Below are positions 2,727 to 20,898 of a DNA stretch of 64,000 nt, piece by piece. The position numbers and the translations under genes were made by a program. Under the pieces are notes generated by a model. The model was not told where the DNA came from and made no database searches. It worked only from the letters and a program-made list of their open reading frames with translations. Numbering within the stretch: the stretch's first letter is position 1; every line of letters begins with the position of its first letter. Source of the stretch: a virus; the IMG/VR virus record IMGVR_UViG_3300046804_004848, positions 1-64,000 of that record; one strand, 5' to 3'.

Positions 2727-2734
2727 TTTTATAT

Positions 2735-2810: not shown

Positions 2811-2816
2811 AACAAT

Positions 2817-2890: not shown

Positions 2891-2912
2891 TACTATTTTG
2901 AATAAATACAAC

Positions 2913-3834: not shown

Positions 3835-3873
3835 AAATTTTTATAGCTGTTTTTAATATATAAATAAATTTAT

Positions 3874-3949
3874 TCACCAATAGCTCAGTCGGTAGAGCAG
3901 CAGACTGTTAATCTGTTGGTCCGTGGTTCAAGTCCACGTTGGTGAGCCA
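3874..3949 (+). tRNA. tRNA-Asn (GTT)
   Basis: GCAGA-CTGTTAA-TCTGT, CCA end. Confidence 0.93.
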
Positions 3950-3966
3950 GTTTTAAAAGGAAACTA

Positions 3967-4323
3967 ATGTCAGAATACTTTGGATATCATCTTTTATTAG
4001 ATTGTAGTGGTTGCGAAAATATTGATAGTCGTGAAAACATTTACAATTGGATAAAATATCTTGTTCCTACCATAGATATGATTGCAGCAGGTGAGCCATG
4101 GATTGAATATTTACTTGAGGATGATCCTAAACAAGGGTATACATTGATGCAAGCTATTACAACAAGCAGTATAACCGCACACTTTATGGAATTAGATAAT
4201 ACTGCTTACATTGACATTTTTAGTTGTAAACCATTTGACATAAATTTAGCACAGTATATTGTCCAAACTTATTTCAATCCAAAGAAAATTCGTGTAAACT
4301 ATCTTACACGCCATGCTGATTAA
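3967..4323 (+). CDS. speD: S-adenosylmethionine decarboxylase proenzyme-like
   Basis: GYHLLLDCSGC, ITTSSITAHF (self-cleavage serine region), YIDIFSCKPFD. Confidence 0.75.
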   Translation: MSEYFGYHLLLDCSGCENIDSRENIYNWIKYLVPTIDMIAAGEPWIEYLLEDDPKQGYTLMQAITTSSITAHFMELDNTAYIDIFSCKPFDINLAQYIVQTYFNPKKIRVNYLTRHAD

Positions 4324-4334
4324 ACGTTTTTAAT

Positions 4335-4408
4335 TCCTCCTTAGTTAAGTGGTATAACATCGGCTTTGTAACCCGAAATCATCTGTTCAATTCAGATAGG
4401 GGGAACCA
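4335..4408 (+). tRNA. tRNA-Thr (TGT)
   Basis: TTTGTAA loop, cloverleaf, ACCA end. Confidence 0.85.
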
Positions 4409-4424
4409 ACCTAACTTATAACTT

Positions 4425-4946
4425 ATGAACATTGAACAAAAACGTGGTATGAGTGGTAATCTCAAACCATTTGACCGTAACGACCATGCTCAATACGATA
4501 GTAAAGGCAAACAAGCTTTTATAAAATATTTAGATGGTTTTTTACCAAAGCATTTAAAGACTATTGAAAATCCTAATGAACATGGTATTGATTTATTAAC
4601 CATAGATCAAAACACAAACAAAGTTGTTCAAACATGGGAAATTGAAGTGCGTCATGGCAATTGGCGAGATGATACACCATTTCCATTTAATGACATTAAT
4701 TGTATTGAACGTAAAGATCATCAGTGGCGTAAAAGCAACGAATATTTAAAAAAGATTCCACATCCTATTGAGCATAATCATCAAGTATGTTATGTACAAC
4801 TTAATGCACCATGCACAAGAGCAGTATTAATTGACGGTGCAATTATATTAAATTATCCATTAAAACCATGGGCAAATCGTAAGGGTGATGGTGAGTATGT
4901 TAGACAAGTACCTGTTGCAAAAACCATACAAATAAAAATTGCTTGA
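4425..4946 (+). CDS. PD-(D/E)xK-like nuclease-fold protein
   Basis: GIDLL...WEIEVR motif. Confidence 0.45.
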   Translation: MNIEQKRGMSGNLKPFDRNDHAQYDSKGKQAFIKYLDGFLPKHLKTIENPNEHGIDLLTIDQNTNKVVQTWEIEVRHGNWRDDTPFPFNDINCIERKDHQWRKSNEYLKKIPHPIEHNHQVCYVQLNAPCTRAVLIDGAIILNYPLKPWANRKGDGEYVRQVPVAKTIQIKIA

Positions 4947-4971
4947 CAACATATCTAAATTTAGTTAATAT
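4943..4971 (+). promoter_or_regulatory. Early sigma70 promoter
   Basis: TTGACA-17-TAATAT with ATATCTAAATT spacer motif. Confidence 0.7.
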
Positions 4972-5001
4972 ATCTCTATTGACAACGAAACGGAGATTGA
5001 A

Positions 5002-5313
5002 ATGAGTTTAGTGACTATCAAGTTAGCTCCCCAAGAAGTTTCAACCGAGTTTTATTTCTCAAAAAATCGTATTGGTTTAGTAAGGTCAGTACTTGATCTT
5101 TACACAGCAGCAAAACCTTTTTTCACTGATCTTGAAGGTACAAAAGCTGCTGAAGAAGCATTTGACCTAACTAACAATCCTTATCGTCAAAGTGAACGTG
5201 TAGAACTTTACGGTAGAGGACGTTCGCTTAGTATCGGTGATATTGTTGAAGTGTGTGCGAATGGTGAGACCACCGAGTTTTTATGTGATAGTTTTGGTTG
5301 GATTAAACTGTAA
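5002..5313 (+). CDS. Hypothetical early protein (YodL-like RSLSIGD motif)
   Basis: RSLSIGDIV...FLCDSFGW; GGAG RBS. Confidence 0.6.
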   Translation: MSLVTIKLAPQEVSTEFYFSKNRIGLVRSVLDLYTAAKPFFTDLEGTKAAEEAFDLTNNPYRQSERVELYGRGRSLSIGDIVEVCANGETTEFLCDSFGWIKL

Positions 5314-5323
5314 GGAGTTGGAA

Positions 5324-6575: not shown

Positions 6576-6580
6576 TAAAT

Positions 6581-6778
6581 TTTAGAACCTCGGATTACAC
6601 TTTGACCGTTAGCGAAAGTGGGCGATTGTCGCTGCCATACAGACAGGGTGCTAAGATCTACCCCAAAGCTCGCCTTACATGAGTGATAGAAATATCTTAG
6701 GTGGACGCAGCCTACCATAAGGGTAACGTGGACAGTGTAACTACTCAGTTTAGGGCTAATGAGGATTAGTGGCTAAAC
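6581..6778 (+). ncRNA. Unidentified ~200-nt multi-stem RNA
   Basis: Non-coding and GC-rich; stems CACTTT/AAAGTG, CTAAGAT/ATCTTAG, GGTGG/CTACC, GCTAAT/ATTAGT, TTACACT/AGTGTAA. Confidence 0.55.
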
Positions 6779-6792
6779 ACGAATTATTTTTT

Positions 6793-6852
6793 AGGATGCT
6801 AACAGCCATTTAAAACATCAAACTGATAAATTGAACCGTTAAATGCATCCTG
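6793..6852 (+). ncRNA. Y-like scaffold RNA copy 2 carrying an Ile(GAU) anticodon-loop mimic
   Basis: AGGATGC-TAACAGCCA...TCAAA-CTGATAA-ATTGA...AAAT-GCATCCTG. Confidence 0.65.
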
Positions 6853-6859
6853 TATTATT

Positions 6860-6933
6860 GGGGGATTAGTTAAATGGGATAACATCGGCTTTGCAAGTCG
6901 AGATTGAGAGTTCGATTCTCTCATCCTCCACCA
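6860..6933 (+). tRNA. tRNA-Ala (TGC)
   Basis: TTTGCAA loop, G3:U70 pair, CCA end. Confidence 0.9.
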
Positions 6934-7113
6934 TTAAATAGGATGCTCAAAATCTAGTATAAATTCAAATGCTGCTTTATAATCTGTAAAATATCGCATT
7001 TGAAAATTTTGATCGTATAAATCATGTAACATAACTAAACAAACACCTTGTTCACTACGACACAAATATATGTGTAGTCCACTTGGTGTTAAGGTTTGGT
7101 ATACATCGTTCAT
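6934..7113 (-). CDS. Hypothetical protein
   Basis: MNDVYQTLTPSGLHIY... preceded by TAAATA motif. Confidence 0.5.
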   Translation of the reverse strand: MNDVYQTLTPSGLHIYLCRSEQGVCLVMLHDLYDQNFQMRYFTDYKAAFEFILDFEHPI

Positions 7114-7138
7114 AACCATATTTAGTATAGGAAATATA

Positions 7139-7567
7139 ATGAAAGTTGACAAAAAAGAAAATCCATTCTTTAGTATTACTGCCAAAGATTGTGAATGGTC
7201 ATATACTAAAGGTACAGGAGCAGGTGGACAAAAACGTAATAAAACAAGTTCAGCAGTACATTGTACACATCGTGCAAGTGGTGCACATGGGTATAGCGAA
7301 TCTAGTCGTAGTCAACTAGATAATCGTAAAGATGCATTTGAAAAAATGGCTAATAGTGATAAATTTAAAAAGTGGATTAAATTAGAATATATGAAACGCA
7401 CAGGTGAATTAGTAGAAGCTGAACGTGCGTTGGAACGTGAATTAAAGAAAGTTAAAGTAGAAGTAAAGATTGATGGTAAATGGGTTCAAGTCAGTGAGAA
7501 TCAGTTGGTTGATGATCCTGATACATTTGATACAAGTTTTTTAAAGGAGAGTCCAAATGGACAGTGA
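7139..7567 (+). CDS. Class I release-factor-like peptidyl-tRNA hydrolase (ArfB/PrfH-like)
   Basis: GTGAGGQKRNKTSSAV and RSQLDNRKDA motifs; stand-alone GGQ domain. Confidence 0.85.
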   Translation: MKVDKKENPFFSITAKDCEWSYTKGTGAGGQKRNKTSSAVHCTHRASGAHGYSESSRSQLDNRKDAFEKMANSDKFKKWIKLEYMKRTGELVEAERALERELKKVKVEVKIDGKWVQVSENQLVDDPDTFDTSFLKESPNGQ

Positions 7568-7585
7568 CAAGGTACGAAAGATTAT

Positions 7586-7659
7586 GGGGGTATAACTTAA
7601 TGATAAAGTAATTGGCTTTTAACCAATAAATCAGAGTTTGATTCTCTGTGCCCCTACCA
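7586..7659 (+). tRNA. tRNA-Lys (TTT)
   Basis: ATTGG-CTTTTAA-CCAAT, CCA end. Confidence 0.85.
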
Positions 7660-7702
7660 TTATAATTAAGCATATTAAACATAGTGTTCTTAATTATAAT
7701 AG
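7657..7702 (+). repeat. Inter-tRNA long-stem element, divergent copy 3
   Basis: CCATTATAATTAAGCATATT...TAGTGTTCTTAATTATAATAG begins at the tRNA CCA. Confidence 0.6.
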
Positions 7703-7713
7703 TTTAAAGAATA

Positions 7714-7786
7714 CTCTCTGTGGCGTAATCTGGCAGCGTACTGCGTTTGGGGCGCAGCGGTCTTGGTTCAAATCCAAGCAGAGAGA
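7714..7786 (+). tRNA. tRNA-Pro (TGG), CCA not encoded
   Basis: CTGCG-TTTGGGG-CGCAG; GGTTCAAATCC. Confidence 0.85.
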
Positions 7787-7794
7787 CAATTAAT

Positions 7795-7872
7795 AGGACA
7801 TTGAAGGGAATAGGTATACCTTTTTCGCTTAGAACGAAAAGTTTCTCGGTTCGACTCCGAGGTGTCCTACCA
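7795..7872 (+). tRNA. tRNA-Leu (TAG) without long variable arm
   Basis: TTTCG-CTTAGAA-CGAAA; short variable loop; ACCA end. Confidence 0.8.
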
Positions 7873-7875
7873 AAT

Positions 7876-8439
7876 TTACTTCATTCCTGCCATGCTTTTT
7901 AACTGATCAAGTTTGGCATCATACTTAGCACCCCAACTCATTACCCAATTTTTTAGTTTAGTAATATATTGAGATAGCTTACCCTCATCTAGTTGAGGCT
8001 TGTCTTTTGGTTCAATTTTTAATGATGGTGCTTTTTGTGTTACTGTAACCATCGTTTTCTTTAAACCTTCTAATACTGATATAAGTTCAGGAGTAAGTTG
8101 TTTTTCTAAAACCTCTAATATATCCTTATATTTTGGTGATACCGTAGCTTTGGGATCTTTTGAAAGTGTTATAATAAATGATACTGTGTCAATAACACGT
8201 GTTTTTACAGCGTCTTCAATATCAAATAAATCAGATACATTTTCACGTGAAGATTGTTTTACTTCATCTTCAAGTGCTTTAAGTTCGGTTTTAAGTTCAT
8301 TAATACGTTTAACTTTTTTAGCTAAGTTAGTATAGATTTGACTTTGATGGCTTTTTAAAGAAACTGTGGTCTTATCAGGCTCATCCATATATGGAAAGTC
8401 GCCAAGACGTGCTTCATTAATGATTTCAGTATATTTCAT
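7876..8439 (-). CDS. Hypothetical coiled-coil protein with internal-protein-like N-terminus
   Basis: MKYTEIINEA start; upstream ATAAATA motif. Confidence 0.7.
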   Translation of the reverse strand: MKYTEIINEARLGDFPYMDEPDKTTVSLKSHQSQIYTNLAKKVKRINELKTELKALEDEVKQSSRENVSDLFDIEDAVKTRVIDTVSFIITLSKDPKATVSPKYKDILEVLEKQLTPELISVLEGLKKTMVTVTQKAPSLKIEPKDKPQLDEGKLSQYITKLKNWVMSWGAKYDAKLDQLKSMAGMK

Positions 8440-8477
8440 AAAAGTATTTATCCTAGTTTATCTATATAAATATTGGT

Positions 8478-8792
8478 GTGAAAGATATTTACGATTATAT
8501 TAAACTCACGAAAAAGGAACGTCAAGAACATTTGGATCTTGATGACTATTGTATAGAACGTGGTGGTGGCTCAACAATTTGCAAAGGATTACTTGCACAT
8601 TTACTTGAAACTACCATACCTAAAGGGCATCAGATACATGTTTGTCACGCTTGCAATAATGGCAAGTGCAGTAATCCAAAACACTTATATTGGGGTACCG
8701 CTTCAGAAAACCGTATGGATCGTGTTAGGTATGAAAATAGATCCATTAGCGAAATGCTAGAAGACAGGTATCGTAGACGAAAACCTACATGA
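8478..8792 (+). CDS. HNH/His-Me finger endonuclease
   Basis: VCHACNNGKCSNPKHLYWGTASENRMD. Confidence 0.8.
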   Translation: MKDIYDYIKLTKKERQEHLDLDDYCIERGGGSTICKGLLAHLLETTIPKGHQIHVCHACNNGKCSNPKHLYWGTASENRMDRVRYENRSISEMLEDRYRRRKPT

Positions 8793-9484
8793 TTGATGAT
8801 AAATCACATATAATTTTAAATAAAGCAAATTTAGAACTATATTTAAAATATGTTTGTGGCAAACTAAATGCTGACTTTAGTGCAGAAAGTACAACTAATG
8901 CACAATTATTGAACTTATTAGAAGTAAGTTTAACTGATAAAAATGGTTCTAGTGCTAGAGAACAAGTTATAGCACATATGCTTGATTATCAATGGCAAAG
9001 TAAAAAACTAGGTATTGATGCTATAGATTTAAAACACAATAGATACAAAGAGATTAAACCCACATCTAATTCTAAAATGGGTAAAGCTAGTTCGTTAAGG
9101 TTTAATTTTAATGACGTGACACGAGAATCAATTCATAAATATGAACATACAGATATTGTCGTTGCATTGTTTCAAAATTGTAGATTAATTATAGTTCTTG
9201 AGTTTCCGTTTAGTGTGATTGAACAATATTTCAATAGTAGAATAGAAAAAATGTTTACTGATATTAAACATCAAAATAAACGTAAGACGATGAATATTGG
9301 AGCAAAAGAATATATTAGCAGTCCTCATTTGAAAGTACACTATATTGACAAAGAACTTATCCTTGCTTATAATTCAATTACTAAAAAAAATTTAGCTATA
9401 ATAGAAAACGCCACTAACCATGTTAACATCCATACTACCGAATTACTTGAACATAAGATACAGTTTGAGGAATCTATCGGATGA
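8789..9484 (+). CDS. Putative restriction-endonuclease-like PD-(D/E)xK protein
   Basis: GIDAID...YKEIK...FNFND; overlaps methyltransferase start. Confidence 0.5.
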   Translation: MIDDKSHIILNKANLELYLKYVCGKLNADFSAESTTNAQLLNLLEVSLTDKNGSSAREQVIAHMLDYQWQSKKLGIDAIDLKHNRYKEIKPTSNSKMGKASSLRFNFNDVTRESIHKYEHTDIVVALFQNCRLIIVLEFPFSVIEQYFNSRIEKMFTDIKHQNKRKTMNIGAKEYISSPHLKVHYIDKELILAYNSITKKNLAIIENATNHVNIHTTELLEHKIQFEESIG

Positions 9485-10442
9485 ATATTTTCTATCTATT
9501 ATAGACCAACTTGCAGAAGAATTAGAAAATCATCCTTACACCATACAATATCCAATCAAAAAGTTAGAACAAGATTGGAAAAATCTTATTGCTTTTAAAG
9601 AACAAACCAACACTATTAATTCTACATCAAGATTAGGTATGAAATTATGTGAACATTTTTTCCCTAATTTTTTTGATATTGAAAATAACAAAGGTGAAAG
9701 CTTTTCTAAACTGTGGAAAAAAGACAATATTAAAAAAATATTAATTTGGAATAGAAAAAGTCATTCTACTCCATATATGTCAGAACTTAGACGTGGTGTA
9801 TATTTTTGCTTGGGTTTAACTAAAAACACAATGTTTCGCCCACAATTAGCCAAACTTATTTGTAACAAATATAAACCTGATATTGTGCTTGATCCTTGTG
9901 CAGGATGGGGAGGAAGATTATTAGGCACAGTAGCGCATGGTGCAAAATATATAGCTTTTGAACCAAACACAACAACTTATGATGGTTTACAGGCATTAGT
10001 AAAGTTTTGTAATATACAAGATAGAGTGCAATTAATTTGTGATGATGCACGAAATATGCATCAATATGATTTCCCACAAGTAGATATGGTATTAACAAGT
10101 CCACCTTATTTTGATGTGGAAATTTATACAAAACAAACAACACAATCAATCACTAATTGTAACACTTATGATGAATGGGCAACGGGGTTTTTGAAAAATA
10201 TAATAGACCAATCCTTAAGCAGATTAAATAAACATGGTGTAAGTTGTTGGAATGTGGGTAAAGTAGGTTCACGTTTTATGCAAGATGATGTAGCGCATTA
10301 TCACCAACAAAATATGTTTACTAACGTAAATGAATTTAGTGTGATAAGCAGTAAACGACAAGCATTACAAACAACTGATAGCAAAAAAAGTGCTGATGTA
10401 ACGGTTGTATATCAAACATGCGGGTATGGTGCTAACGGTTAA
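9420..10442 (+). CDS. DNA amino-methyltransferase (N4C/N6A type)
   Basis: VLDPCAGWGGR (motif I) and LTSPPYF (motif IV). Confidence 0.85.
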   Translation: MLTSILPNYLNIRYSLRNLSDEYFLSIIDQLAEELENHPYTIQYPIKKLEQDWKNLIAFKEQTNTINSTSRLGMKLCEHFFPNFFDIENNKGESFSKLWKKDNIKKILIWNRKSHSTPYMSELRRGVYFCLGLTKNTMFRPQLAKLICNKYKPDIVLDPCAGWGGRLLGTVAHGAKYIAFEPNTTTYDGLQALVKFCNIQDRVQLICDDARNMHQYDFPQVDMVLTSPPYFDVEIYTKQTTQSITNCNTYDEWATGFLKNIIDQSLSRLNKHGVSCWNVGKVGSRFMQDDVAHYHQQNMFTNVNEFSVISSKRQALQTTDSKKSADVTVVYQTCGYGANG

Positions 10443-10495
10443 CACGAGACCTTGCCAAGGTTTAGTTGAGGGTTCGATTCCCTCTACCCGCTCCA
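10420..10495 (+). tRNA. tRNA-Gly (GCC)
   Basis: TTGCCAA loop, TCCA end; overlaps methyltransferase 3' end. Confidence 0.9.
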
Positions 10496-10502
10496 ATAAT
10501 TA

Positions 10503-10577
10503 GGTGATATGGCGTAGAAGGATGCGCACAGGTTTCATAAGCCTAGGAGGTTGGGTCGGTACCAACTATCACCACCA
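10503..10577 (+). tRNA. tRNA-Met (CAT) with non-canonical T loop
   Basis: TTCATAA loop; T loop GTCGGTA; ACCA end. Confidence 0.75.
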
Positions 10578-11165
10578 TTATTCATTTGGTGTAGATGCAA
10601 GTAATTCCATCAATTCATTTTCATTATAATAATAATTACCAAGAATAAGCAATATAAAGTCAAATACTTGTATTCTACGTGTTAAACCCATTATATTGAT
10701 GTTAATGTTATATATTCTCTCCTCAAGTGAATCATAAAGAATATCCTCAGTTCGTTGTTTCATTTTGAGTTTTTTCTTTACTTTTTCAAATTTTTCTAAA
10801 TCTTTTTTGTTATCCTTGATTTGATCCTTCATTTGTGATTGAGATTGTTCTACTTCTCTACGCATGTTAAAAATTAAATCATTAATTTCAGGATTATGCA
10901 CAGATAATTGATTCCAAAAAACACGCAGCATCATTTGTTTAGCCTCTTGATACATAGTGTTATCAATATAGGCAGAATTATCATTGTCAAATGATTTACG
11001 TCTAAAAGGATCACTTAAAATTTGATAAGCATTATTGATTTCCTGAAATTTAGCTATATTTCCACCTTTGTCAGGATGATTTTCATTAGCTAACTGACGG
11101 TATTTTTGTTTAATTTCATCAAAGGTTGCGTTCTTATTTACACCTAAAATATCATATGGGTTCAT
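10578..11165 (-). CDS. J-domain (DnaJ-like) protein
   Basis: PYDILGV...HPDKGG...FQEINNAYQILSDP. Confidence 0.9.
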   Translation of the reverse strand: MNPYDILGVNKNATFDEIKQKYRQLANENHPDKGGNIAKFQEINNAYQILSDPFRRKSFDNDNSAYIDNTMYQEAKQMMLRVFWNQLSVHNPEINDLIFNMRREVEQSQSQMKDQIKDNKKDLEKFEKVKKKLKMKQRTEDILYDSLEERIYNININIMGLTRRIQVFDFILLILGNYYYNENELMELLASTPNE

Positions 11166-11207
11166 GTAAATATTTAGTTAGGTGGTTTGGCTAGTTAAAT
11201 ATGTTGC

Positions 11208-11783
11208 ATGAAACGTATTAACGATTTGATTTTTGTTGTCAACAATTTTGTTACTAAACATACCTGTCATCAAATGTACGAATACTTAACCAATACTGTA
11301 ACTCATAATATTGCAGATGAGCATGACATGCCTTGGGAGTTAGGTAATAATATTTTTTATTCTGATATTAAAGATACGTATATAAAAGAAAAAGTTTATA
11401 ATATAAAATTTGGTGTCGCTAATTTGCTAAGTTATTTGCATAATACCAAAGTATATCCACATTTTACAGATATGGTTTTATGGCAAAAGCATCAACAAAT
11501 GAATAGGCATGTGGATAATGGAAGCAATCAAGTAGGGCGAGATGATTTAGCCATGAGAAAATATTCTGCAATTATCTATTTAAATGATAATTACAAAGGT
11601 GGCAAGACATTTGTTAGTTTGGATGAAGAAAATGATTATATTTCTAAACCTAAGACAGGTACATTGTTAATGTTTACAAGTGACCAACGTACTACGCATG
11701 GAGTAAAAAAAGTAAAAGTAGGGTATCGTGGCACGTTAGCCATGTGGTTTGCAACAGAAAAGAAGTATCAAGAGAAAGACTAA
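11208..11783 (+). CDS. 2OG-Fe(II) oxygenase (prolyl-4-hydroxylase-like)
   Basis: HVD, YLNDNYKGG, HGV...R motifs. Confidence 0.85.
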   Translation: MKRINDLIFVVNNFVTKHTCHQMYEYLTNTVTHNIADEHDMPWELGNNIFYSDIKDTYIKEKVYNIKFGVANLLSYLHNTKVYPHFTDMVLWQKHQQMNRHVDNGSNQVGRDDLAMRKYSAIIYLNDNYKGGKTFVSLDEENDYISKPKTGTLLMFTSDQRTTHGVKKVKVGYRGTLAMWFATEKKYQEKD

Positions 11784-11784
11784 A

Positions 11785-11860
11785 GGACGGTTAGCTCAGT
11801 TGGTAGAGCGGCACGTTTACACCGTGTAGGTCGGGAGTTCAAACCTCTCACCGTCCACCA
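11785..11860 (+). tRNA. tRNA-Val (TAC)
   Basis: GCACG-TTTACAC-CGTGT, CCA end. Confidence 0.92.
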
Positions 11861-11886
11861 TTATAAAACGGTTAAATACAGTTATT

Positions 11887-12450
11887 ATGACTGTCTCATC
11901 AAAATATTTTATAGATATACCAAATTTAGGTTTTCAATTTTTACAACCTAATTTAAACGCAACTGACTACTTACCTGAAGTTGTTACACATAATTGGGTT
12001 GAGACACAAACTAACAATTTTTTTACAGATCAAGCGATATCATGGTTTAATCATATTGGCTTTGATATTAAACATACATTGTATTTGTTTTGTGCAAACT
12101 CTCAGGTGATAGGTCCGATCCATAGTGATTTAACCAATTATGCTTTTAATTTTGTTGTAAGTGGTTATGGTAAGATGGAATGGATTAAACCGCACAATAA
12201 ACCTTATACACATGAAAAAATATATGGCAATCGTGTGTCAAAGTATTTACGATTTGAACCACATATTGAAGATATGGTCATTGATTCATGGGTTGGTACT
12301 CAAGCTTTGGTACAAGTGTTTACACCACATCGTATTGTTACTAGTCATGAAAAACGCTATACTGTTTCTTTACGTACGCATGGTAAAAAAATACAATCAT
12401 GGGAACAAGCTGTTAGTAATTTACAACAGTATATAAATTCGCCTCTTTAG
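11887..12450 (+). CDS. Hypothetical cupin/2OG-like protein
   Basis: IHSD...PHRI...RYTVSLR pattern. Confidence 0.5.
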   Translation: MTVSSKYFIDIPNLGFQFLQPNLNATDYLPEVVTHNWVETQTNNFFTDQAISWFNHIGFDIKHTLYLFCANSQVIGPIHSDLTNYAFNFVVSGYGKMEWIKPHNKPYTHEKIYGNRVSKYLRFEPHIEDMVIDSWVGTQALVQVFTPHRIVTSHEKRYTVSLRTHGKKIQSWEQAVSNLQQYINSPL

Positions 12451-12515
12451 CTCAGTGGTAGAGACCCATCTTGATAAGGTGGGGGTCCTTGGATCGTTCC
12501 CAAGAAGAGGCACCA
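12441..12515 (+). tRNA. tRNA-Ile (GAT)
   Basis: CCATC-TTGATAA-GGTGG; T loop ATCGTTC; ACCA end. Confidence 0.8.
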
Positions 12516-12532
12516 ATTTTATTAAGGAGAAA

Positions 12533-13138
12533 ATGATGCCTGCAGTTTGGATAGTAAGTGACACACATTTCGGTCACGAAAAAACTTGCACTGTTTTTAA
12601 ACGTGAAGATGGGTCACCACTTAGACCGTTTAGCAGTGCTGAAGAAATGGATGAGTTTATGGTCAAAGCATGGAATGAACGTGTTAGACCAAATGATAAG
12701 GTATACCATTTAGGCGATGTTGTAATCAATAGAAAAGCCTTAAATACCCTACGCAGACTAAATGGCGATAAGGTGCTTATACGTGGTAATCATGATATTT
12801 TTAAATTACAAAATTACTTAGAGCATTTTAGAGATATTCGTGGATACCATGTGATGAATGGACTTATTTTAAGTCATGTGCCCGTACATCCAAAAAGTCT
12901 TGGACGCTTTGGTTGTAATATACACGGGCACTTACACGCCAATAAAGTTATGAAAGCGAGAGGTTTCGATGCTAAAACAGAAGAAATCTTATATTCAGAT
13001 GAGATTGATCCAAGATATTGGTGTGCCTGTGTTGAACAAACTGACTTCGCACCTATCTTGTTTGAACATGCTTTAAAAAAGATTGTTGAGCAAGGAGGAC
13101 GAGTTGGCTTCCAAAATGGAAACGGTCCTACCATGTAA
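12533..13138 (+). CDS. Calcineurin-like metallophosphoesterase
   Basis: SDTHFGH, HLGD, GNHD, HGHLH; AAGGAG RBS. Confidence 0.9.
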   Translation: MMPAVWIVSDTHFGHEKTCTVFKREDGSPLRPFSSAEEMDEFMVKAWNERVRPNDKVYHLGDVVINRKALNTLRRLNGDKVLIRGNHDIFKLQNYLEHFRDIRGYHVMNGLILSHVPVHPKSLGRFGCNIHGHLHANKVMKARGFDAKTEEILYSDEIDPRYWCACVEQTDFAPILFEHALKKIVEQGGRVGFQNGNGPTM

Positions 13139-13739
13139 TAGATTTACATTTAGGGCCATGCCAACGAGTGTAGTTTGATTTGGATATATTGACAATACCA
13201 CAATGCTCACAGCTTTTTAAGTGGGCATTGTTTTTTGTCCAATGATTCTCTCCGCTTATTTTTGCTAATGCCACAGGATCATACATTGGATTGTTCTCCA
13301 AGAGTTGTTTAGAAGCACGAGCACGATTCTCGGTAAAAGATCCTGGATTGTTGATACGCATACGCTCACGATTCTTCGGAGTATTAAAATGATGTTTACT
13401 GCCTAAAGATTTTTGGCGAATAGAATGTTTCAGTCTATTCTCCGGCTTTTTCATATGGTGTGCGTCACCGCAGGGAAATCCTGTAGCCTGATTACTTTGA
13501 TTCATACATCCGATCTTACCAAAATGTAAATCCAAATAGTATTGTTCTCGCTCGATATAATGCTGTTCATTTTGGCAAACTTCCAAAATAGTTTTGGTAA
13601 CATTGTTTAAATTTTTTATGCTTTTGGACCAAGTGCCGCTACCAATATATTCATCATTAAGATTATTTGTAGCGTGTCGTCCAATATAGTAGTGTCCGTT
13701 TTTATGTTGGACATGATAAATGATATAATGTAAATACAT
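13128..13739 (-). CDS. GIY-YIG (Seg-like) homing endonuclease
   Basis: YIIY...YYIGRH...YIGSG, EREQ, NPM repeats, C-terminal CxxC...RWHGPKCK. Confidence 0.85.
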   Translation of the reverse strand: MYLHYIIYHVQHKNGHYYIGRHATNNLNDEYIGSGTWSKSIKNLNNVTKTILEVCQNEQHYIEREQYYLDLHFGKIGCMNQSNQATGFPCGDAHHMKKPENRLKHSIRQKSLGSKHHFNTPKNRERMRINNPGSFTENRARASKQLLENNPMYDPVALAKISGENHWTKNNAHLKSCEHCGIVNISKSNYTRWHGPKCKSITW

Positions 13740-13810
13740 TTGCTGGTGCTCCTCTAAAGCATTAGAGCGGGTGGATGTTGGTAGCATCGTGATCCGCACC
13801 TTTATTTATC
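13740..13810 (-). promoter_or_regulatory. Structured 5' leader of GIY-YIG gene
   Basis: ATAAATA followed by GCGGAT..GATG-CTACCAA-CATC..ACCCGC stem and TGCT-TTAGAGG-AGCA hairpin over the RBS. Confidence 0.55.
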
Positions 13811-13989
13811 TTTTAACAGGATAAAAATTAGCATTAACAATGAAGGGGGTACTGTTGGTTTTCGCAATGGCAACGCCCCTATTATGTAGGGGTTGTTGCC
13901 AACCTACATTGTCATCATGACAACGCACTTGACTATAATTTGTACTTGTCGTATAATTGGATGGTGGTAATTGATTTAGGAGATTTGAT

Positions 13990-16900
13990 ATGACGTTGAT
14001 TTCTCGTACTAGTTTGATTACAGGGTGTTTAAACACTATGGACTTGCCAATTACTGAAGATATGATTAGTGATTGGATAGAAAGTGACGCATTAATACAA
14101 CACGCTTTTCCTAACCTCAGTGCTGATGAGCGTGAGTTTTTATTGACAGGAGCAACACCTACTGAATTTAATGAATTATTTGCTGAAGAAGAGCTTGACA
14201 ACATATCCTAATTAATGTACAATTGATTCTGTTGAGTTAATAAGGAACTAATCATGAAAACCGTAGCTCTCTATTCTCTAGTTGGTACTTCAAAAGCCAA
14301 GACTGCCAAAGCAATCTTGTTCCATGATACCCGTACCAACAAGGAAGCATGGATTCCTACCTCTATTGCTTCAGTCAAGTTTATCGGACCTGACTACGCT
14401 GTAAAAGTCACTGTGCCCGATTGGTTCTTCAACAAAATTTCTTGGAAAGAACCTACCACTTTTGTCAAAAAAACAACAAACCCATACATCGGTGCTGATA
14501 TCGGTAACATGATGGAAGAGCGTATGGTTCTTACAGAGATGTACGATAGTCTTGATGAGACTAATTCTGATGATTTTAAACAACAAGAAGAAATTCAAAA
14601 ACGACTACATTGGATTGATGAAGCAGTAAATATTGCTTGACAAGAAATTAATTTAGATATACAATACTTAAATGGTAAACAAAACGGAGCAAATGATGGA
14701 AAAAGTTCTTTACAATAGCCCAATGTTTAACAAAGTATTCTTGATCCCAACTGATGCTGTAAAAACTTATAAAAAGCGTGATGCCGCATTACTTGCTTTG
14801 AAAGATCTTGGTGGTATTAATGCTCCACATACTAAAGAAGTTACGAAACTTCGCCAAACCATGCTCAACGCTAAACGCAAGATTGAGCGTGAAGGTTGGT
14901 TTTGTGTTCCTGTCTAATTGACAAGAAATTTATTTAGATATATAATTCTTCTATAGTAAACAACAAGGAGCACAAAATGAGCAAGTTGGATAGAGTGTTA
15001 GATGAATTGTTTTGGTTAGCCATTTGGTCAATCCCCGCAGTGTTCGTCGTAACCTGTGTGTTTGGTATTGTATACGGTGTGTTGTTTTAAAACAACAGGT
15101 TTACAGCACACAAGATCTGTGCTATTATACACTTACACTGAACAACAAGGAGTTTTAAATGGACTTTGAAAAAACCGTGTTAAAAAAGGTTACTGAAGTA
15201 ACGGATGATTGCTTTTTTTACTCAAGTGGAGTTTTGTCTGTAATTTGTACTCCATATCAAGCCAAAAAAATCTTTAAGAAGTTGACCACCGAATTAAATT
15301 TAAAAACTAAGCTTGGAAAAGACGGTTCTTACGGTTTTACCTTTTACTTTGATTAATAAGGAGTAATAGATGGAAATCTCTACTGCAATTAAAGTCCTAC
15401 ATAAAGAATGTGACTTTTTAGGTAAAGGTATGTTAGACCTGATTGATGATATACAAAAACACGGTCATGCAGTATATTCTAATCAAGTGGTGGTAGCTTG
15501 TAATGTTTATATTGCATCACGCCGAAAAGTTACTTTTACTGTTTAAGCGAGGTTGAGATGGAAGAAATGATTGCAGAACTTAAGCAATTTGCGCTAGATC
15601 ATTATGAAGCAGGTGGTCATTGGGTAGTTGAAACATATAGTAAAGAAGATTATATTGAAGTACTTACAAAAGCAAAAACAGTAACTAAAGCTAAAAAAGA
15701 ACTGAAAAAATATTGGAAGTTTATAAATGAAAGACAAGCTGAGTGTAGGTACGAATAAAATAGTTGACAATTTATCCTAATTGATTTACAATAGATTCTG
15801 TTGAGTTAATAAGGAGCGCAGAAATGACAACTTATACTGTTCACATGATTAATTTCGGTATCAACAAGGGTACGTTTCCTACTGCTGAAGAAGCGATTGC
15901 CCAAGCTAAAGCAATAGGGTTTGAGTGTGCAATATGGGTAAACGAACCTAACAAAGATCCGTTGCATTTGTGCAATGTTAAGCCCTACTAGGAGTATGTA
16001 GATGGACTCACGCTCAGTATCAGCCTTTGATTTTCTACAGCGAGCAGAACGGTATGCTGAAGCTCGTGGTGATGATAATTTCTTTAAGAATTTTTACGTC
16101 AATTATCGTGAGTATAACTCAGTAACGGATTCAGTTTGGAAAACTTTAAGTTACCTTTACGGTGACGATGTTGCAAATATGCTAGAGTTTCAATAGCCTA
16201 TTGACAATAAATCCAAATTTATATATAATTGTTTCTGTACTGATTAATAAGGAACTGAAATGACTACTGCTCTTGATACTAGCGAATTCATCGGAACCAC
16301 TTCCTATCACAAATTGTTTCTTGGTGACTTGCTCACTGACGGTGCTATGCACGTTGCAGAAACTTGCGGTGCATTTTGGTTGATGGATGAAATTACTTTT
16401 GCGCTACGCAATGCACGTAATGCCAAAAAAATTAACTTCAGCACGTTTGTTGTAGTTACCCTAAAGAAAACAAGAACGGGTAGTGCTACGATTACCTTTA
16501 GTGATGGTAATGACCTTAGCTTTACCAAGCGTATTGAGTACACAGATTTTCCTTACGATACTTGCAAACTTTATGCAATATTAACTGAAGTTCAAGGTCG
16601 CAATCGTTGGGTTGTAATGGTTCCAAGTGAGTACTAATAAATGAAAATTGAAGATAGATATTTAGAAGCAAATCAAAAAGCATTTGACAATCCCCGAATA
16701 GGGGATTATTGGAGTGAACATTTTTGTCCATACTTTATTATCGTTGATATCAATGATGACAATTACACGGTATTAAGTTGTTTAGGTGGTCCTCACAGTT
16801 TTACCCGTAAGGATGAACTCAATGCTAAAATTGAAGTAGATAGTGGACATTGGACTTTTGATTTAAGTAAATCTATGGTTGTCAACCGTCAATGGATAAC

Positions 16901-17547
16901 TAAGGCTGTAAAGTATGAAAGTATAGATCGCTTTGTAGCTGATGTAGTAAACACTGAAAAGACTCAAAATATAGTATCTGAATGGAGAGAGTTTAAAGGT
17001 AAACAAATTCTTAAACAAATTGAAAACTTGCAGAATGAATACTTACAATTTACTGAGTGGAATACATTAAAGAAAGAATCATTGTGAAAGTGATTCAATC
17101 ATGTTTGACACTATCCTAAAAAATTGTTATGATTCTCTTGTAATGACAAAGGAGAAATTAATGAAGCCAACTTCTGAAATGTACACGACTTTGACTCTTA
17201 CAGAAAAAGCTGAAATCAAGCAATATGGAATGACTGTAAAAGCAATGGTTGATGCAATTGAAATTACAATGATTGAGGGTGATCGTAGCCCTGAACAAAT
17301 TGCAAGAACTATGCTTGTTGATGTAGGTAATATGGTTGGTAATGATCCTGATGATATGTTTGAAGCAAGAAAAGATATTAATCGTGTGATTTATATCTTG
17401 CAGAATTTCTGTGTCAAGCAAGAAACTACAATTACATTGTTGTCAACAAAAGCAGATCTTGCTATAATTGATGGTGATGTTGAAATGTTGGTTGATGTTC
17501 TTAAACAAGCTAAAAATCTTATTGAAGCACAAAAGGAAACTGTATGA
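13990..17547 (+). other. Cluster of short hypothetical early genes (13990-14211, 14254-14640, 14672-14917, 15159-15356, 15558-15758, 16002-16196, 16260-16637, 16641-17087, 17101-17547 and smaller)
   Basis: Co-oriented short ORFs with AGGAG RBS, many preceded by TTGACA-17-TAcAAT/TATAAT promoters (14195, 14638, 14918, 15764, 16201). Confidence 0.7.
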
Positions 17548-17722
17548 AAACCGTGGATCAATTGTTCAAGACTAAACGTGCTGTTGCTACTGCGATGGGT
17601 GGTAAGAATAAAGTACGTAAGTTTAAATTGAAGCGTGATTTTGAAGATGGATACAAATTTAATTATCGTAAAAATGTTTACAAAAGTTTTGAATTAGAGG
17701 TATAATATATAAGTAGTAATAT

Positions 17723-18008
17723 GCGAGTGTGGTGAAATAGGTAGACACAAGGGACTTGAGTTAAATTTGAGTGCCCTGTTGGAAACAGCAGGAGTAGAAC
17801 CCGTCAAATTCGGTGAAGGCTGTAAGATGCTAATACCGAGCGAAGCCCGAAAGGGAACGTGTAGAGACTAGACGATGGGGACCTAAAGTAGAAATACCAT
17901 GGTTAAGGTATAGTCCAGACCACAAACCAAAAGGGTAGTGAAAACTATAGTGGTAAGAAAATCCCTCGCTCACAAGGCGTGTCGGTTCGACTCCGACCAT
18001 TCGCACCA
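17723..18008 (+). tRNA. tRNA-Leu (TAA) interrupted by a group I intron (exons 17723-17757 and 17958-18008)
   Basis: Exon joining gives GGGA-CT-TAA-AA-TCCC, long variable arm, CCA end. Confidence 0.9.
17758..17957 (+). mobile_element. Group I intron (IC3-like), 200 nt, no ORF
   Basis: Follows exon U and ends in G; core elements AAATTCGGTGAA, AATACCGAGC, GTAGAGACTAGACG, AAGGTATAGTCC. Confidence 0.9.
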
Positions 18009-18022
18009 AATTGAAGAACAAT

Positions 18023-18097
18023 TGCGGGATAGAGAAGTAGAAACTCGTCAGTCTCATAAGCTGAAGATCGGTGGTGCAATTCCATCTCCCGCTACCA
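18023..18097 (+). tRNA. tRNA-fMet-like (CAT)
   Basis: Unpaired 1:72, GCGGGA acceptor, CTCATAA loop. Confidence 0.8.
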
Positions 18098-18104
18098 ATA
18101 AAGT

Positions 18105-18179
18105 GCCTGGTAAGTGTTGGTGATTACATATCTGACTTCCAATCAGACGTATCGGGTTTGACTCCCGAACCAGGCTCCA
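18105..18179 (+). tRNA. tRNA-Gly (TCC)
   Basis: TCTGA-CTTCCAA-TCAGA, TCCA end. Confidence 0.85.
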
Positions 18180-18199
18180 ATAAATAAAAGGAAAACAAT

Positions 18200-18472
18200 A
18201 TGAACACAGATATACAAAAAATTTATAGTAGAACAGGCAATTTATTTGAAGCTGCTTTGATTGCTGCACAGCGTGTACGTGAACTTAGCGCAGAGCGTAA
18301 AGCATCAGAAGAGATAGCAGCACGTGATGCAGTGCAAGCTAACAGAGCAGTGTTTAGTCGCAAGGTTGAGACTAAAACTAGTCAAGCATTGCGTGAAATT
18401 GAAGAAGGAATTATTGACAAAACTTATTTGATGAAAATTAAATCAAGGGTAAAAAAGACTAAATTAAGGTGA
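18200..18472 (+). CDS. rpoZ: RNA polymerase omega subunit-like protein
   Basis: GNLFEAALIAAQRVREL and KTSQALREIEEG match omega conserved regions. Confidence 0.75.
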   Translation: MNTDIQKIYSRTGNLFEAALIAAQRVRELSAERKASEEIAARDAVQANRAVFSRKVETKTSQALREIEEGIIDKTYLMKIKSRVKKTKLR

Positions 18473-18476
18473 TGAC

Positions 18477-18959
18477 ATGAAAAAAGAAATCAATGTATTA
18501 GAAGTACTAGAATATCTTGAAAAATGTGGCACTAATACTAAAATATACATTGGTTGTGATAGTGAGCGCATGAGAATAGAAAATGTTTGGTACGCTGACT
18601 ATATTTTAGCAGTAGTAGTACATATTGATGGTAAACATGGATGTAAGATTTTTGGAGCAGTACAACGTGAACGTGACTTTGACCAAAAAGCAAATAAGCC
18701 ACGTATGCGTTTAGTTAATGAAGCATACAAAGTTGCGGATTTATATCTAAAACTTGCACCCTATGTTGAATTTGATATTGAAGTACATTTGGATATAAAT
18801 CCTGATGAAAAGCATAACAGTAGTATTGCAATACAAGAAGCAGTAGGTTATATTCGGGGTACATGTAATGTTATACCTATGGTAAAACCACATGCTTTTG
18901 CAGCATCAACTGCGGCTGACCGTTACAAGGAAATTGTCGGTCATCGTAGAGTAGCATAG
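18477..18959 (+). CDS. RNase H-like YkuK family protein
   Basis: IYIGCDS, EVHLDINPD, KPHAFAASTAAD. Confidence 0.8.
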   Translation: MKKEINVLEVLEYLEKCGTNTKIYIGCDSERMRIENVWYADYILAVVVHIDGKHGCKIFGAVQRERDFDQKANKPRMRLVNEAYKVADLYLKLAPYVEFDIEVHLDINPDEKHNSSIAIQEAVGYIRGTCNVIPMVKPHAFAASTAADRYKEIVGHRRVA

Positions 18960-18994
18960 GAGAGGGTTTCCTCTCCTTATTTTTGGAGAGGAAC

Positions 18995-19183
18995 ATGAGT
19001 AAAAAATCTAAATCGTTAAAACTTGTAAATCGCAGAACTAAGGAAGAGTGGCTTTGTGAAGATTTTACCAATCAAAAAAATATTGATGGTACAATGTTCG
19101 TTGAAGTGTATAAACCTGAAAACGGAAGAAAAGTATGGATGAACGTAACAAATTTAGATAAGAAACGTGTTGACAGTAAATAA
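18995..19183 (+). CDS. Hypothetical protein
   Basis: MSKKSKSLKL... with GGAGAGG RBS. Confidence 0.6.
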   Translation: MSKKSKSLKLVNRRTKEEWLCEDFTNQKNIDGTMFVEVYKPENGRKVWMNVTNLDKKRVDSK

Positions 19184-19198
19184 AGAATTATATACTAT
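19170..19198 (+). promoter_or_regulatory. Sigma70 promoter for ncRNA-ncRNA-DUF2828 unit
   Basis: TTGACA-17-TACTAT. Confidence 0.65.
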
Positions 19199-19208
19199 AC
19201 ACACATTA

Positions 19209-19373
19209 AGGATGGATACAGCAACTTTTTTACATGACTAAGGATTGAGTAATCGATCAGCCTGTTGGGGTTAGCCAACTTTGGGCATAGACGAGATCTA
19301 TGATAGGCTTGTGATACAAAGTCCCTTGTGGTAGTGGGCAAGCAGAAAATAAATTACCGTATCAACCATCCTG
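19209..19373 (+). ncRNA. Y-like scaffold RNA copy 3 with multi-hairpin cargo
   Basis: AGGATGG-ATACAGCAA...CCATCCTG; internal hairpins GTTGG/CCAAC and CATAGA/TCTATG. Confidence 0.65.
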
Positions 19374-19381
19374 TTAGTTTA

Positions 19382-19438
19382 AGAATGCTAACAGCAACTT
19401 AAAAAATCAAACTTGAAAATTGAAATAAATGCATTCTG
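19382..19438 (+). ncRNA. Y-like scaffold RNA copy 4 carrying a Ser(UGA) anticodon-loop mimic
   Basis: AGAATGC-TAACAGCAA...TCAAA-CTTGAAA-ATTGA...AAAT-GCATTCTG. Confidence 0.65.
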
Positions 19439-19453
19439 TTAAGGAAAATTAAA

Positions 19454-20836
19454 ATGGAATTTAAAACAGCAGTAGAACAAACTGAAGTTACAATTACCAC
19501 TAATGGTATGGCTGCGTTTAATGGAACAGGTGATGCGCTTGTAGACTTGTTCTTTAAAATTGGAGCATCACGTGGTAAAGATATTACCGCATTATTTGAA
19601 AAAGCATTTCAAGAAAGTCCTGAAATTGCAACCAAAATTTTGCTATGGGCACGTGATGTTCGTGGTGGAGCAGGTGAACGTCAATTAATACGTGATCTAC
19701 TCTTATACATGGAGATTAATCATCCAAGTATGCTAATACGTGTAATCCCACATATCCCTACTTTTGGACGATGGGATGATATGCTAATATTTGCATCACG
19801 CACCATGAAAAACTTTGCATACACCTCAATACGTGATGCACTGATGAACGGTGATGGATTGTGTGCAAAGTGGATGCCACGTAAAGGACAAATTGCAGCA
19901 GAATTACGCAATTTTATGGGTTTGTCTCCTAAGACATATCGTAAATTATTAGTCAATGCAACTAAAGTTGTTGAAACTCATATGTGCGCTAAAGAATGGG
20001 ATAAGATCAACTACTCGCATGTGCCATCAATTGCCGCCTCTATTTACAAGAAAGCATTTGATCGTAATGACCATGATCGCTATAAAGAGTATCGTGATGG
20101 GTTAGTTAGTGGAACCACTAAAATTAATGCTTCAGCAATATACCCACATGACGTAATTAAGTCATTATCAAGTGGAATCATTGATGTAAGTATTGCACAG
20201 TGGGAAGCACTACCTAACTACATGAGTGACGCTAATGTGTTACCTATGGTTGATGTAAGTGGGTCAATGGGCTGTCCTGTAGGTGGAGCTAAAAACTTAA
20301 CTTGCTTGAATGTTGCAGTAGCATTAGGGTTATATTGTGCTGATAAAAATCGTGGTGCGTTTAAGGATATGTTTTTAACATTTTCTACCAACACCAAGAT
20401 TGAAATATTAAAAGGTAATATTGTTGATAAAATGAATCAAATGAATCGTGCTGATTGGTCATTGTCAACTAATCTCATCGGAGCATTTGATGCTATATTA
20501 AATGTAGCAGTAAACAACAAAGTACCTGAAGCAGATATGCCTAAGTTTTTATTGATTCTTTCTGATATGCAGTTTAATCAAGCAGTACGTGCTGATGATA
20601 CCGCATACAAAGCAATTGGTAAGAAGTATGCTGATGCAGGATATGATGTACCTAAGATTGTTTTTTGGAACTTAAACTCACATGACAATGTGCCTGTGCA
20701 GTTTGATACACGTGGTACAGCATTGGTAAGTGGTTTTTCACCTGCGATCATGAAGTCTATCTTAGGTGCAAAAGATTTCACACCATTGAGCATTATGCTT
20801 GATACTGTGAACGTTGAGCGATACAACGTGCTGTAA
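19454..20836 (+). CDS. DUF2828-family Ro/TROVE-like protein with C-terminal vWA domain
   Basis: TTNG, LVDLFF, WARDVRGGAGER, GRWDD, AKWMPR; vWA MIDAS DVSGSM, STN, ILSDMQF, IVFWNL. Confidence 0.85.
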   Translation: MEFKTAVEQTEVTITTNGMAAFNGTGDALVDLFFKIGASRGKDITALFEKAFQESPEIATKILLWARDVRGGAGERQLIRDLLLYMEINHPSMLIRVIPHIPTFGRWDDMLIFASRTMKNFAYTSIRDALMNGDGLCAKWMPRKGQIAAELRNFMGLSPKTYRKLLVNATKVVETHMCAKEWDKINYSHVPSIAASIYKKAFDRNDHDRYKEYRDGLVSGTTKINASAIYPHDVIKSLSSGIIDVSIAQWEALPNYMSDANVLPMVDVSGSMGCPVGGAKNLTCLNVAVALGLYCADKNRGAFKDMFLTFSTNTKIEILKGNIVDKMNQMNRADWSLSTNLIGAFDAILNVAVNNKVPEADMPKFLLILSDMQFNQAVRADDTAYKAIGKKYADAGYDVPKIVFWNLNSHDNVPVQFDTRGTALVSGFSPAIMKSILGAKDFTPLSIMLDTVNVERYNVL

Positions 20837-20866: not shown

Positions 20867-20898
20867 GCAAGTACTAGTAATAGTACTTGCTTTTTTTT
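20867..20898 (+). terminator. Intrinsic terminator
   Basis: GCAAGTACTA-GTAA-TAGTACTTGC plus T8. Confidence 0.85.

Follow-up and report, generated by a model that had tools for sequence, protein, structure and literature searches.

The first 64,000 nucleotides (nt) of the virus record IMGVR_UViG_3300046804_004848 (positions 1-64,000 of 137,959 nt, the record having an estimated completeness of 39%; this whole stretch is called the window below) carry five copies of an RNA scaffold that recurs, in related phages, just upstream of genes for DUF2828/DUF7788 proteins. On balance we read these elements as small non-coding RNA genes, which would form a modular, Y-RNA-like family partnering a Ro60-fold protein and bearing exchangeable parts of tRNAs as cargo. 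The layout of the elements, the covariation in their helices, their linkage to the gene, the modelled fold of its product and the statistics of the loops displayed by the short copies are described first, followed by the readings that they allow.

A repeated scaffold upstream of a DUF2828/DUF7788 gene

Each copy is laid out in the same order, namely UUUAGG-, a stem of 7 base pairs (bp), 3 nt, C[AC]GCAA, a cargo, the 3' stem strand and GU(U)(G), with the covarying terminal stem, the motif C[AC]GCAA on the 5' side and the tail ...CCUGUUG on the 3' side as its constants. The initial annotation of this DNA had counted four copies; scanning with a regular expression that required the terminal stem and with a covariance model (R1, built on 36 short copies, alignment A2) gave five in the window, and no sixth in the full 137,959-nt record. 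These copies, of which the short ones are called minis and are listed with the central triplet of their loop, and the gene downstream of copy 4 are:

2609-2730, plus strand: scaffold copy 1, long form; R1 score 23.6 bits; stem AGGAUGC/GCAUCCU, CAGCAA motif
6789-6856, plus strand: scaffold copy 2, mini form, triplet GAU; R1 score 53.4 bits; stem AGGAUGC/GCAUCCU
19205-19377, plus strand: scaffold copy 3, long form; stem AGGAUGG/CCAUCCU, CAGCAA motif, with a cargo of about 140 nt
19378-19442, plus strand: scaffold copy 4, mini form, triplet UGA; R1 score 61.6 bits; stem AGAAUGC/GCAUUCU
42549-42655, plus strand: scaffold copy 5, long form, in an intergenic gap; stem AGGAUCC/GGAUCCU, CAGCAA motif
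19454-20836, plus strand: gene for a predicted Ro60-fold protein of 460 amino acids (aa), with a helical-repeat domain and a vWA domain bearing a DVSGSM MIDAS-like motif

For copy 3 the regular expression found a perfect 7-bp stem partner at 19366-19372, and the 5' part scored 22.4 bits with R1; copy 5 likewise has a perfect stem by regular expression, with an R1 score of 19.0 bits (E 0.039). The stem of copy 4 differs by a compensated change from that of copies 1 and 2, and this copy is kept in three relatives (L001-L003). Searches of Rfam at the gathering score returned tRNAs only, and at a permissive E-value copy 4 gave only a chance-level match, to a Dictyostelium RNA (E=1). Two of the copies are embedded in tRNA genes, of which this phage has at least 19: copy 1 lies between tRNA-Arg (2530-2607) and tRNA-Cys (2735-2810), and copy 2 ends 3 nt before tRNA-Ala (6860-6933). 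Such packing in tRNA arrays, at spacings of 1-5 nt, is found in the window and in its relatives alike.

Pairing was assessed in 108 distinct scaffold hits (60 short, at most 80 nt, and 48 long), aligned by fitting to R1 (alignment A3). The terminal helix was paired in 99.3% of cases, with 5 of its 7 pairs changed on both sides and the G-C and U-A pairs invariant, a figure that is partly given by construction, since A3 was fitted to the model and the regular expression behind A2 demanded the stem. The helix of the cargo hairpin was paired in 85.3% of cases and all five of its pairs were changed on both sides; in the 36 sequences of A2, in whose choice this helix was not selected for, the values were similar (84.5%, 5/5 pairs). 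Taken over both helices, 94.9% of the alignment cells were paired; shuffles gave 65.6%, and sliding the partners against each other gave no more than 46%. A pseudoknot between CAGC and GUUG was also considered and is not supported: its positions are pairable at 78.5%, no two-sided change occurred, and every departure from the common sequence breaks the pairing.

The linkage of the scaffold to the gene was determined in 80 viral loci that each encode homologs of the downstream protein at 49-95% identity; several of these loci are near-duplicates, so that the locus counts below are not independent. At an R1 cut-off of E<=0.01, all 145 hits in these loci and the window were on the strand of the gene and none on the opposite strand, with 141 hits upstream of the gene and none downstream within 6-kb flanks. 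A hit was found in 69 of the 76 loci with at least 250 nt of upstream sequence, and in 54/76 it ended no more than 60 nt from the inferred start codon (33 of these being minis). In G003, a complete genome of 168 kb, all 5 hits fell within about 6 kb. The pattern extends to Vibrio phage BUCT194 (MZ447858), which, like the mini of G001 described below, lay outside the training set of R1: about 690 nt of non-coding DNA precede its DUF2828 gene, whose product is 41% identical to the family profile, and in this gap about six tandem scaffold-like units can be made out by eye, two of which score with R1.

The product of the linked gene (19454-20836) is recognized by sequence as DUF2828 and DUF7788 only in Pfam, and as PHROG 850, an 'RNA-binding protein'. 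It has no Pfam TROVE match, a phmmer search of the PDB returned nothing relevant, and a profile search of the PDB reached only the TROVE protein of Thermus phage phiLo, at E 0.21. An AlphaFold2 model made from 32 homologs (pLDDT 79.9, pTM 0.73) was compared with the PDB by Foldseek, and the 12 best matches were all Ro60/TROVE structures, matched at full length. These comprised the phiLo Ro60 (9kop, E 1.4e-8, TM 0.62; also 9l5y), human Ro60 (9nen), Deinococcus Rsr (2nvo) and Xenopus Ro (1yvr and others), and only isolated vWA/MIDAS domains ranked below them. The DxSxS-type motif D267-V-S-G-S-M is invariant across the family. Given these fold matches, and the failure of the sequence methods, the modelled product is a Ro60-fold protein outside Pfam TROVE. 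Some homologs have been labelled 'Ro sixty-related' or 'RNA-binding protein' by GenBank annotators, and scoring covered more than 8000 relatives with DUF2828/DUF7788. In Serratia phage BF (L088), the DUF2828 homolog (3790-5316) has an annotated RNA ligase gene (2108-3367) on its upstream side, at a distance of about 400 nt, a neighbourhood that fits a link between this family and RNA repair.

tRNA parts carried by the scaffold

In several of the long forms the cargo was recognizable as part of a tRNA. The interior of copy 1 (2648-2714) matched the Rfam family YrlA (RF02553; 36.1 bits, E 9e-5 in an 18-kb search, model positions 23-86), below the gathering score of 69, and appears to be built as a permuted tRNA-like module with a T arm, a closed acceptor and a D arm. 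Sub-threshold matches to YrlA, of 36.8-42 bits, were also found inside scaffold hits in 3 of 10 relative loci searched, and a canonical T arm (strict pattern) in 15 of the 48 distinct long copies. One further copy (L045:885-1006, fold z -3.5) consists of the scaffold with a D arm, an anticodon arm (UCUGU-CUUGUAA-ACAGA) and a T arm; it is a tRNA body in which the scaffold has taken the place of the acceptor stem. The cargoes of copies 3 and 5 folded no better than shuffles (copy 3, z -0.84).

The minis of the window, copies 2 and 4 (about 65 nt each), are without the YrlA tRNA-like module. As had been noticed initially, they combine the common scaffold with the same small arm, TCAAA-N7-ATTGA, a pattern that has exactly two matches in the 64 kb, both on the plus strand:

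6818-6834, plus strand: mini-arm of copy 2, UCAA(A) CUGAUAA (A)UUGA; loop CTGATAA, triplet GAU; class ASL9, 4 bp plus A·A
19407-19423, plus strand: mini-arm of copy 4, UCAA(A) CUUGAAA (A)UUGA; loop CTTGAAA, triplet UGA; 4 bp plus A·A

The arm as originally described stands in its four Watson-Crick pairs (UCAA/UUGA) but not at the fifth position, where A faces A without pairing, so that the two loops are formally of 9 nt, with the anticodon-like heptamer inside. Both mini-arms are enclosed in a 47-nt direct repeat (D18, 83% identical), the 5' part of which recurs at 2610 (D19). We could also bear out that the loop CTTGAAA is identical to the anticodon loop of the phage tRNA-Ser(UGA) at 3409, and that copy 4 lies about 15 nt before the start of the DUF2828 gene, its 3' stem strand ending at 19437-19438 and the ATG being at 19454. 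A cognate phage tRNA exists for both triplets, which is unremarkable given about 20 tRNAs, and neither ARAGORN nor Rfam called a tRNA at 6789-6856 or 19378-19442, where only the anticodon-arm-like hairpin is present. Taken alone, the bare TCAAA-N7-ATTGA pattern is not significant (0.58 matches expected; two or more in 11 of 100 shuffles).

Comparison among phages bore out the expectation that the homologous loops keep a CU-NNN-AA-type pattern while the triplet varies. When short copies were searched for a hairpin whose stem has 4 bp or more and whose 7-nt loop is of the form Y-U-NNN-R-N, or with such a heptamer as the inner seven of a 9-nt loop, 38/60 fitted, 28 with the 7-nt loop and 10 with the 9-nt loop, both window copies being among these ten; 200 dinucleotide shuffles gave a mean of 3.2 fits (standard deviation 1.6, maximum 9). 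The narrower pattern CU-NNN-AA was present in 23 of all 65 possible hairpins with a 7-nt loop; from the base composition (A.50, T.24, C.15, G.11), a share of about 0.9% would be expected. At least 13 different triplets occur among the 38 fits, led by UGU (10), UGA (6), CAU (4), GCA (3), GAU (3) and GUU (2), with UCU, CUU, UUU, CGA, GUA and GAA among those seen once, and position 36 is U or A in 36/38. The triplet of the gene-proximal mini differs between phages. The two phages outside the training set agree with this picture: BUCT194 has two minis with perfect arms and the loops CUGCUAA and CUUCUAA, and G001, whose protein is 95% identical, has a mini with the stem AGGAUGC and the flanks seen in the window and a different arm, UUAGA-CUGCUAA-UCUAA, with perfect pairing over 5 bp.

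Among mini loops with U36-A-A, 7/15 continue with U-C, giving the string U36-A-A-U-C. Many natural tRNAs contain UAAUC, so the overlap of the minis with the targets of the PARIS nuclease AriB is a lead and not evidence. AriB is described as cutting the tRNAs for Lys (anticodon UUU), Thr (UGU) and Asn (GUU) in the anticodon stem beside U36-A-A-U-C (PMC12409363).

A second recurrent class of minis displays the loop AUUGGA on covarying stems (CUUUUU/AAAAAG, GUUUUU/AAAAAC, AACAU/AUGUU); its members are L008:2372-2438, L023:289-352, L030:763-823, L033:1257-1323, L039:2709-2773 and L100 (G003:125680-125741). This hairpin is possibly a display of GG resembling that of a D-loop.

A Y-RNA-like interpretation and its alternatives

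Y RNAs adjoin the genes of Ro60 (PMC4201824). Ro60 is described as binding them through the terminal stem, a second module tethering other proteins such as PNPase in bacteria, and YrlA as mimicking the tRNA elbow (PMC4201824, PMC12135203). In phage phiLo, two Y-like RNAs (Yrl1/Yrl2) are located upstream of the Ro60 gene and bind Ro60 (PMC12135203). Compared with YrlA and the phage Ro60 RNAs as portrayed in these accounts, the scaffold copies are alike in lying just upstream and on the same strand of a Ro60-fold gene, often in tandem; in a terminal stem that joins their two ends, here of 7 bp and paired at the frequency given above; and, less clearly, in a tRNA-mimicking cargo, the one in copy 1 matching the tRNA-like module of YrlA below threshold. 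Because copy 1 holds this YrlA-type module, we take the family to be Y-RNA-like partner RNAs with tRNA parts as exchangeable cargo, and, since the scaffold also accompanies a Ro60-fold gene, to be components of ribonucleoproteins and not free-standing RNAs.

There are also differences from the known systems. The protein belongs to the DUF2828/DUF7788 branch and not to Pfam TROVE, and the minis carry a look-alike of the anticodon arm, the very part that YrlA omits. In being short companions of a tRNA-like Y RNA at the same locus, the minis resemble the small second Y RNAs YrlB and Yrn2, for which a role in extending the ribonucleoprotein's set of partners has been proposed; those RNAs, as described, do not follow the anticodon-loop rule (Y32 U33...A37 A38) with a triplet changing between phages. 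An anticodon-like hairpin outside a tRNA has precedents, such as the operator of the E. coli thrS mRNA, which is a mimic of an anticodon arm. Another such mimic is domain V of the poliovirus internal ribosome entry site (IRES), which binds glycyl-tRNA synthetase (GlyRS) (PMC3384309). As in these cases, the hairpin of the minis would be a handle for a protein that reads anticodon arms; whereas the thrS operator and IRES domain V are, as described, single cis-acting mRNA elements serving one synthetase each, the minis are multi-copy stand-alone or leader RNAs with a common scaffold and many triplets. We found no description of these RNAs in the literature searched, which consisted mostly of the main texts of openly readable journals, and an earlier mention is possible.

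We infer the protein binding, the RNA processing and the identity of the target in the scheme that we favour, which would run as follows. Copies 3 and 4 would be made from the leader of the gene itself, and copies 1 and 2 from arrays of tRNA genes, where tRNA-processing enzymes would presumably release them. The constant part (7-bp stem, C[AC]GCAA and ...CCUGUUG tail) would be the protein-binding module, through which the DUF2828-type protein would hold and stabilize the RNAs. The variable part would present a piece of tRNA, be it a YrlA-like T-arm/acceptor/D-arm module, a whole tRNA body or an anticodon-arm look-alike, the last being in the minis a stem of 4-5 bp with a YU-NNN-AA loop in which the triplet varies from phage to phage. 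The displayed part could then act as an adaptor or a decoy, engaging host or phage proteins that recognize anticodon arms, among which tRNA-cutting defence nucleases would be the target that appeals most. Through the copy adjoining the ribosome-binding site, the protein may in addition autoregulate.

Several observations weigh against this interpretation or limit its support. Both mini-arms of the window are closed by A·A, and RNAfold places the arm in the minimum-free-energy fold of neither copy 2 nor copy 4; the fold of copy 4 is no better than those of shuffles. More generally, the anticodon-like hairpins are A/U-rich and thermodynamically marginal, appearing in the minimum-free-energy fold of only 10/60 short copies even with the terminal stem enforced. 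Four of the 38 loop fits are doubtful by eye, 22/60 short copies have other hairpins (for example with loops AUUGGA or [AC]GCAAAA), and the training copies of A2 were picked by eye from the regular-expression list, a choice that favours loop-bearing hits. No scaffold was detected in Pseudomonas phage Milchi or in Serratia phage BF, both of which have the gene. The scaffold, with C[AC]GCAA 3 nt after the stem, lacks GNCGAAN0-1G, the defining motif of the Ro60 site in YrlA (Chen et al. 2014, PMC4201824), and no scaffold copy reaches the Rfam gathering score of YrlA (69). Searches of the 138-kb record for RtcB, RNA_ligase and T4 Rnl1 gave no match; as this record is an estimated 39% complete and the Rnl1 search also matched no control genome, an absence of these genes is not shown. 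Metatranscriptome contigs of a relative about 95% identical (3 RNA runs from 2 studies; for example those covering 18677-20442 and 19074-20607) run continuously over copy 3, copy 4 and the gene, and indicate presence only, as they may contain DNA and do not reveal strand, ends or processing; stretches outside their cover are uninformative. As thermodynamic folding is uninformative for such A/U-rich arms, we rely on covariation.

A bolder form of the Y-RNA-like interpretation, which we put forward tentatively and consider improbable as it stands, is that the Ro60-like protein serves as a chassis for programmable decoys made of tRNA parts (elbow modules, whole bodies and bare anticodon arms), with triplets tuned to the tRNA-cutting nucleases of the host, such as PARIS-type Toprim enzymes or others that attack anticodon arms. 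A parallel is phage T5, in which tRNAs cleaved by PARIS AriB are replaced by resistant, functional tRNA variants (PMC12409363). Likewise, the phage studied here is rich in tRNAs, and the mini triplets UGU, GUU and UUU, together with the UAAUC string, overlap the reported targets of AriB; unlike the replacement tRNAs described for T5, however, the minis are unable to decode, which would leave them only binding, titration or signalling as a role. If true, this would be a counter-defence by ribonucleoprotein, distinct from the supply of replacement tRNAs.

The position of copies 3 and 4 invites another account. They belong to a compact unit, in the order terminator (18958-18977), promoter-like site, copy 3, copy 4, ribosome-binding site, gene, terminator, whose flanking signals are:

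19170-19198, plus strand: promoter-like site TTGACA-17-TACTAT, with 10 of 12 positions matching the consensus (consensus match only), preceding copy 3
20867-20890, plus strand: terminator-like hairpin with a U tract, following the DUF2828/DUF7788 gene

The proximal copy might accordingly be a cis-acting leader, acting as an operator by which the Ro60-like protein would repress translation of its own gene, and its loop a leftover, without any mimicry, of the tRNA genes that gave rise to the cargo. This layout, the ending of a copy directly before the ribosome-binding site, at no more than 60 nt from the start in the 54/76 loci mentioned, the weakness of the hairpins, and the range of cargoes from a whole tRNA body to an anticodon arm alone, which looks like a stepwise reduction, all speak for such an account. 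We nevertheless hold it to be unlikely: minis also occur far off in tRNA arrays (copy 2 at 12.6 kb from the gene, and those of L037 at about 2.5 kb), and a relic would be expected to decay, yet the C-U...A-A flanks are kept while triplet and stem change with compensation, and a close relative keeps the scaffold with a different, intact arm. A promoter-like site was not found for copy 5.

Quite unlikely, in our estimate, is the version given by the initial annotation, by which the minis would stand on their own as programmable decoys or sensors, directed at anticodon nucleases or modification enzymes, and cleavage of copy 4 might control the DUF2828 gene. The comparison of phages confirms its core observation, a loop pattern in which the triplet varies, and this version gains from the predominance of UGU (10/38), from the string at the AriB cut site in 7/15 loops and from the at least 19 tRNAs of the phage. 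UAAUC is, however, simply common to many natural tRNAs, and the strict linkage to a Ro60-fold gene argues for ribonucleoproteins and not for free RNAs. Nothing ties cleavage to gene expression, and this part of the proposal is unsupported: the layout fits co-transcription, possibly with autoregulation, equally well.

The tight packing of copies among tRNAs, with spacers of 1-5 nt, and the terminal stem of 7 bp, which with its single-stranded 3' tail recalls an acceptor stem, could also suggest that the elements punctuate tRNA arrays, having no relation to the Ro60-like protein and serving as substrates of RNase P, Z or E in the release of adjoining tRNAs. Such elements would hardly be confined to one side of one gene, as are the 141 hits upstream and none downstream in the 6-kb flanks, or to about 6 kb of the complete 168-kb G003 genome; moreover, the units of BUCT194, as read by eye, have no tRNAs between them, and a conserved C[AC]GCAA is not needed for tRNA processing, which leaves this account very little probability. 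Finally, chance A/T-rich hairpins in repeated intergenic DNA, devoid of RNA function, would be compatible with the recurrence of the bare pattern in shuffles and with the poor fold of copy 4, and are already contradicted by the comparative data, namely covariation in both helices, the strand (145:0) and position (141:0) biases, the loop enrichment (38 vs 3.2) and the recurrence in an independent cultured phage, BUCT194.

If the Y-RNA-like interpretation is true, it would provide a partner RNA and a working hypothesis for the very large, uncharacterized DUF2828/DUF7788 family, whose phage members are covered by PHROG 850. Ro60/Y RNA biology would then reach a second branch of proteins with an RNA-recognition motif of its own, and Y-like scaffolds would be able to bear the anticodon arm, the half of the tRNA left out of known Y RNAs, its triplet varying among phages. 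The interpretation makes testable the idea of phage ribonucleoproteins that titrate, sense or recruit readers of anticodon arms in a tRNA-centred arms race, for which the cultured Vibrio phage BUCT194 offers an experimental system.

Further features of the tRNA clusters and their surroundings

Several other features were observed in the window. A group I intron-like match to Rfam RF00028 at 17748-17938 (40.9 bits, below the gathering score of 50) is followed by a T arm and acceptor 3' strand at 17982-18012, and in the relatives L001 and L002 the corresponding site, ahead of tRNA-Met and tRNA-Gly, holds a continuous tRNA-Leu(UAA); the tRNA-Leu of the window may therefore be split by an intron (17748-18012). 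A tRNA at 10503-10574 was detected by Rfam (41.9 bits) and is absent from the ARAGORN list. Two non-coding stretches in the tRNA cluster, at 2070-2529 (about 460 nt) and 6576-6788 (about 210 nt), have a G+C content above that of their surroundings and matched no Rfam family; in the first there is a segment resembling a T arm (2234-2266), along with a terminator-like hairpin. Also inside the cluster, 7070-7567 encodes a 165-aa protein with an RF-1 domain (peptidyl-tRNA hydrolase, ArfB-like).

Immediately upstream of the unit containing copies 3 and 4 are genes for a protein of 90 aa whose domain resembles RNA polymerase Rpb6/omega (18200-18472) and a 160-aa RNaseH_like (PF04308) protein (18477-18959). 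Farther along, at 23288-25415, long arrays of a 51-nt (17-codon) periodic repeat with 60-80% identity (D1-D3) probably constitute the gene for a repetitive fibre or beta-helix protein.

Among the related phages, tRNAs with anticodons that read stop codons (CUA and UCA, labelled Pyl and SeC by ARAGORN) were found at L030:123-199, L033:1328-1402, L033:2383-2454, L037:1800-1875, L047:1421-1496 and L080:307-383, and judging from these anticodons the phages carrying them may employ stop-codon suppression or recoding. The one at L033:2383-2454 sits within a scaffold copy.

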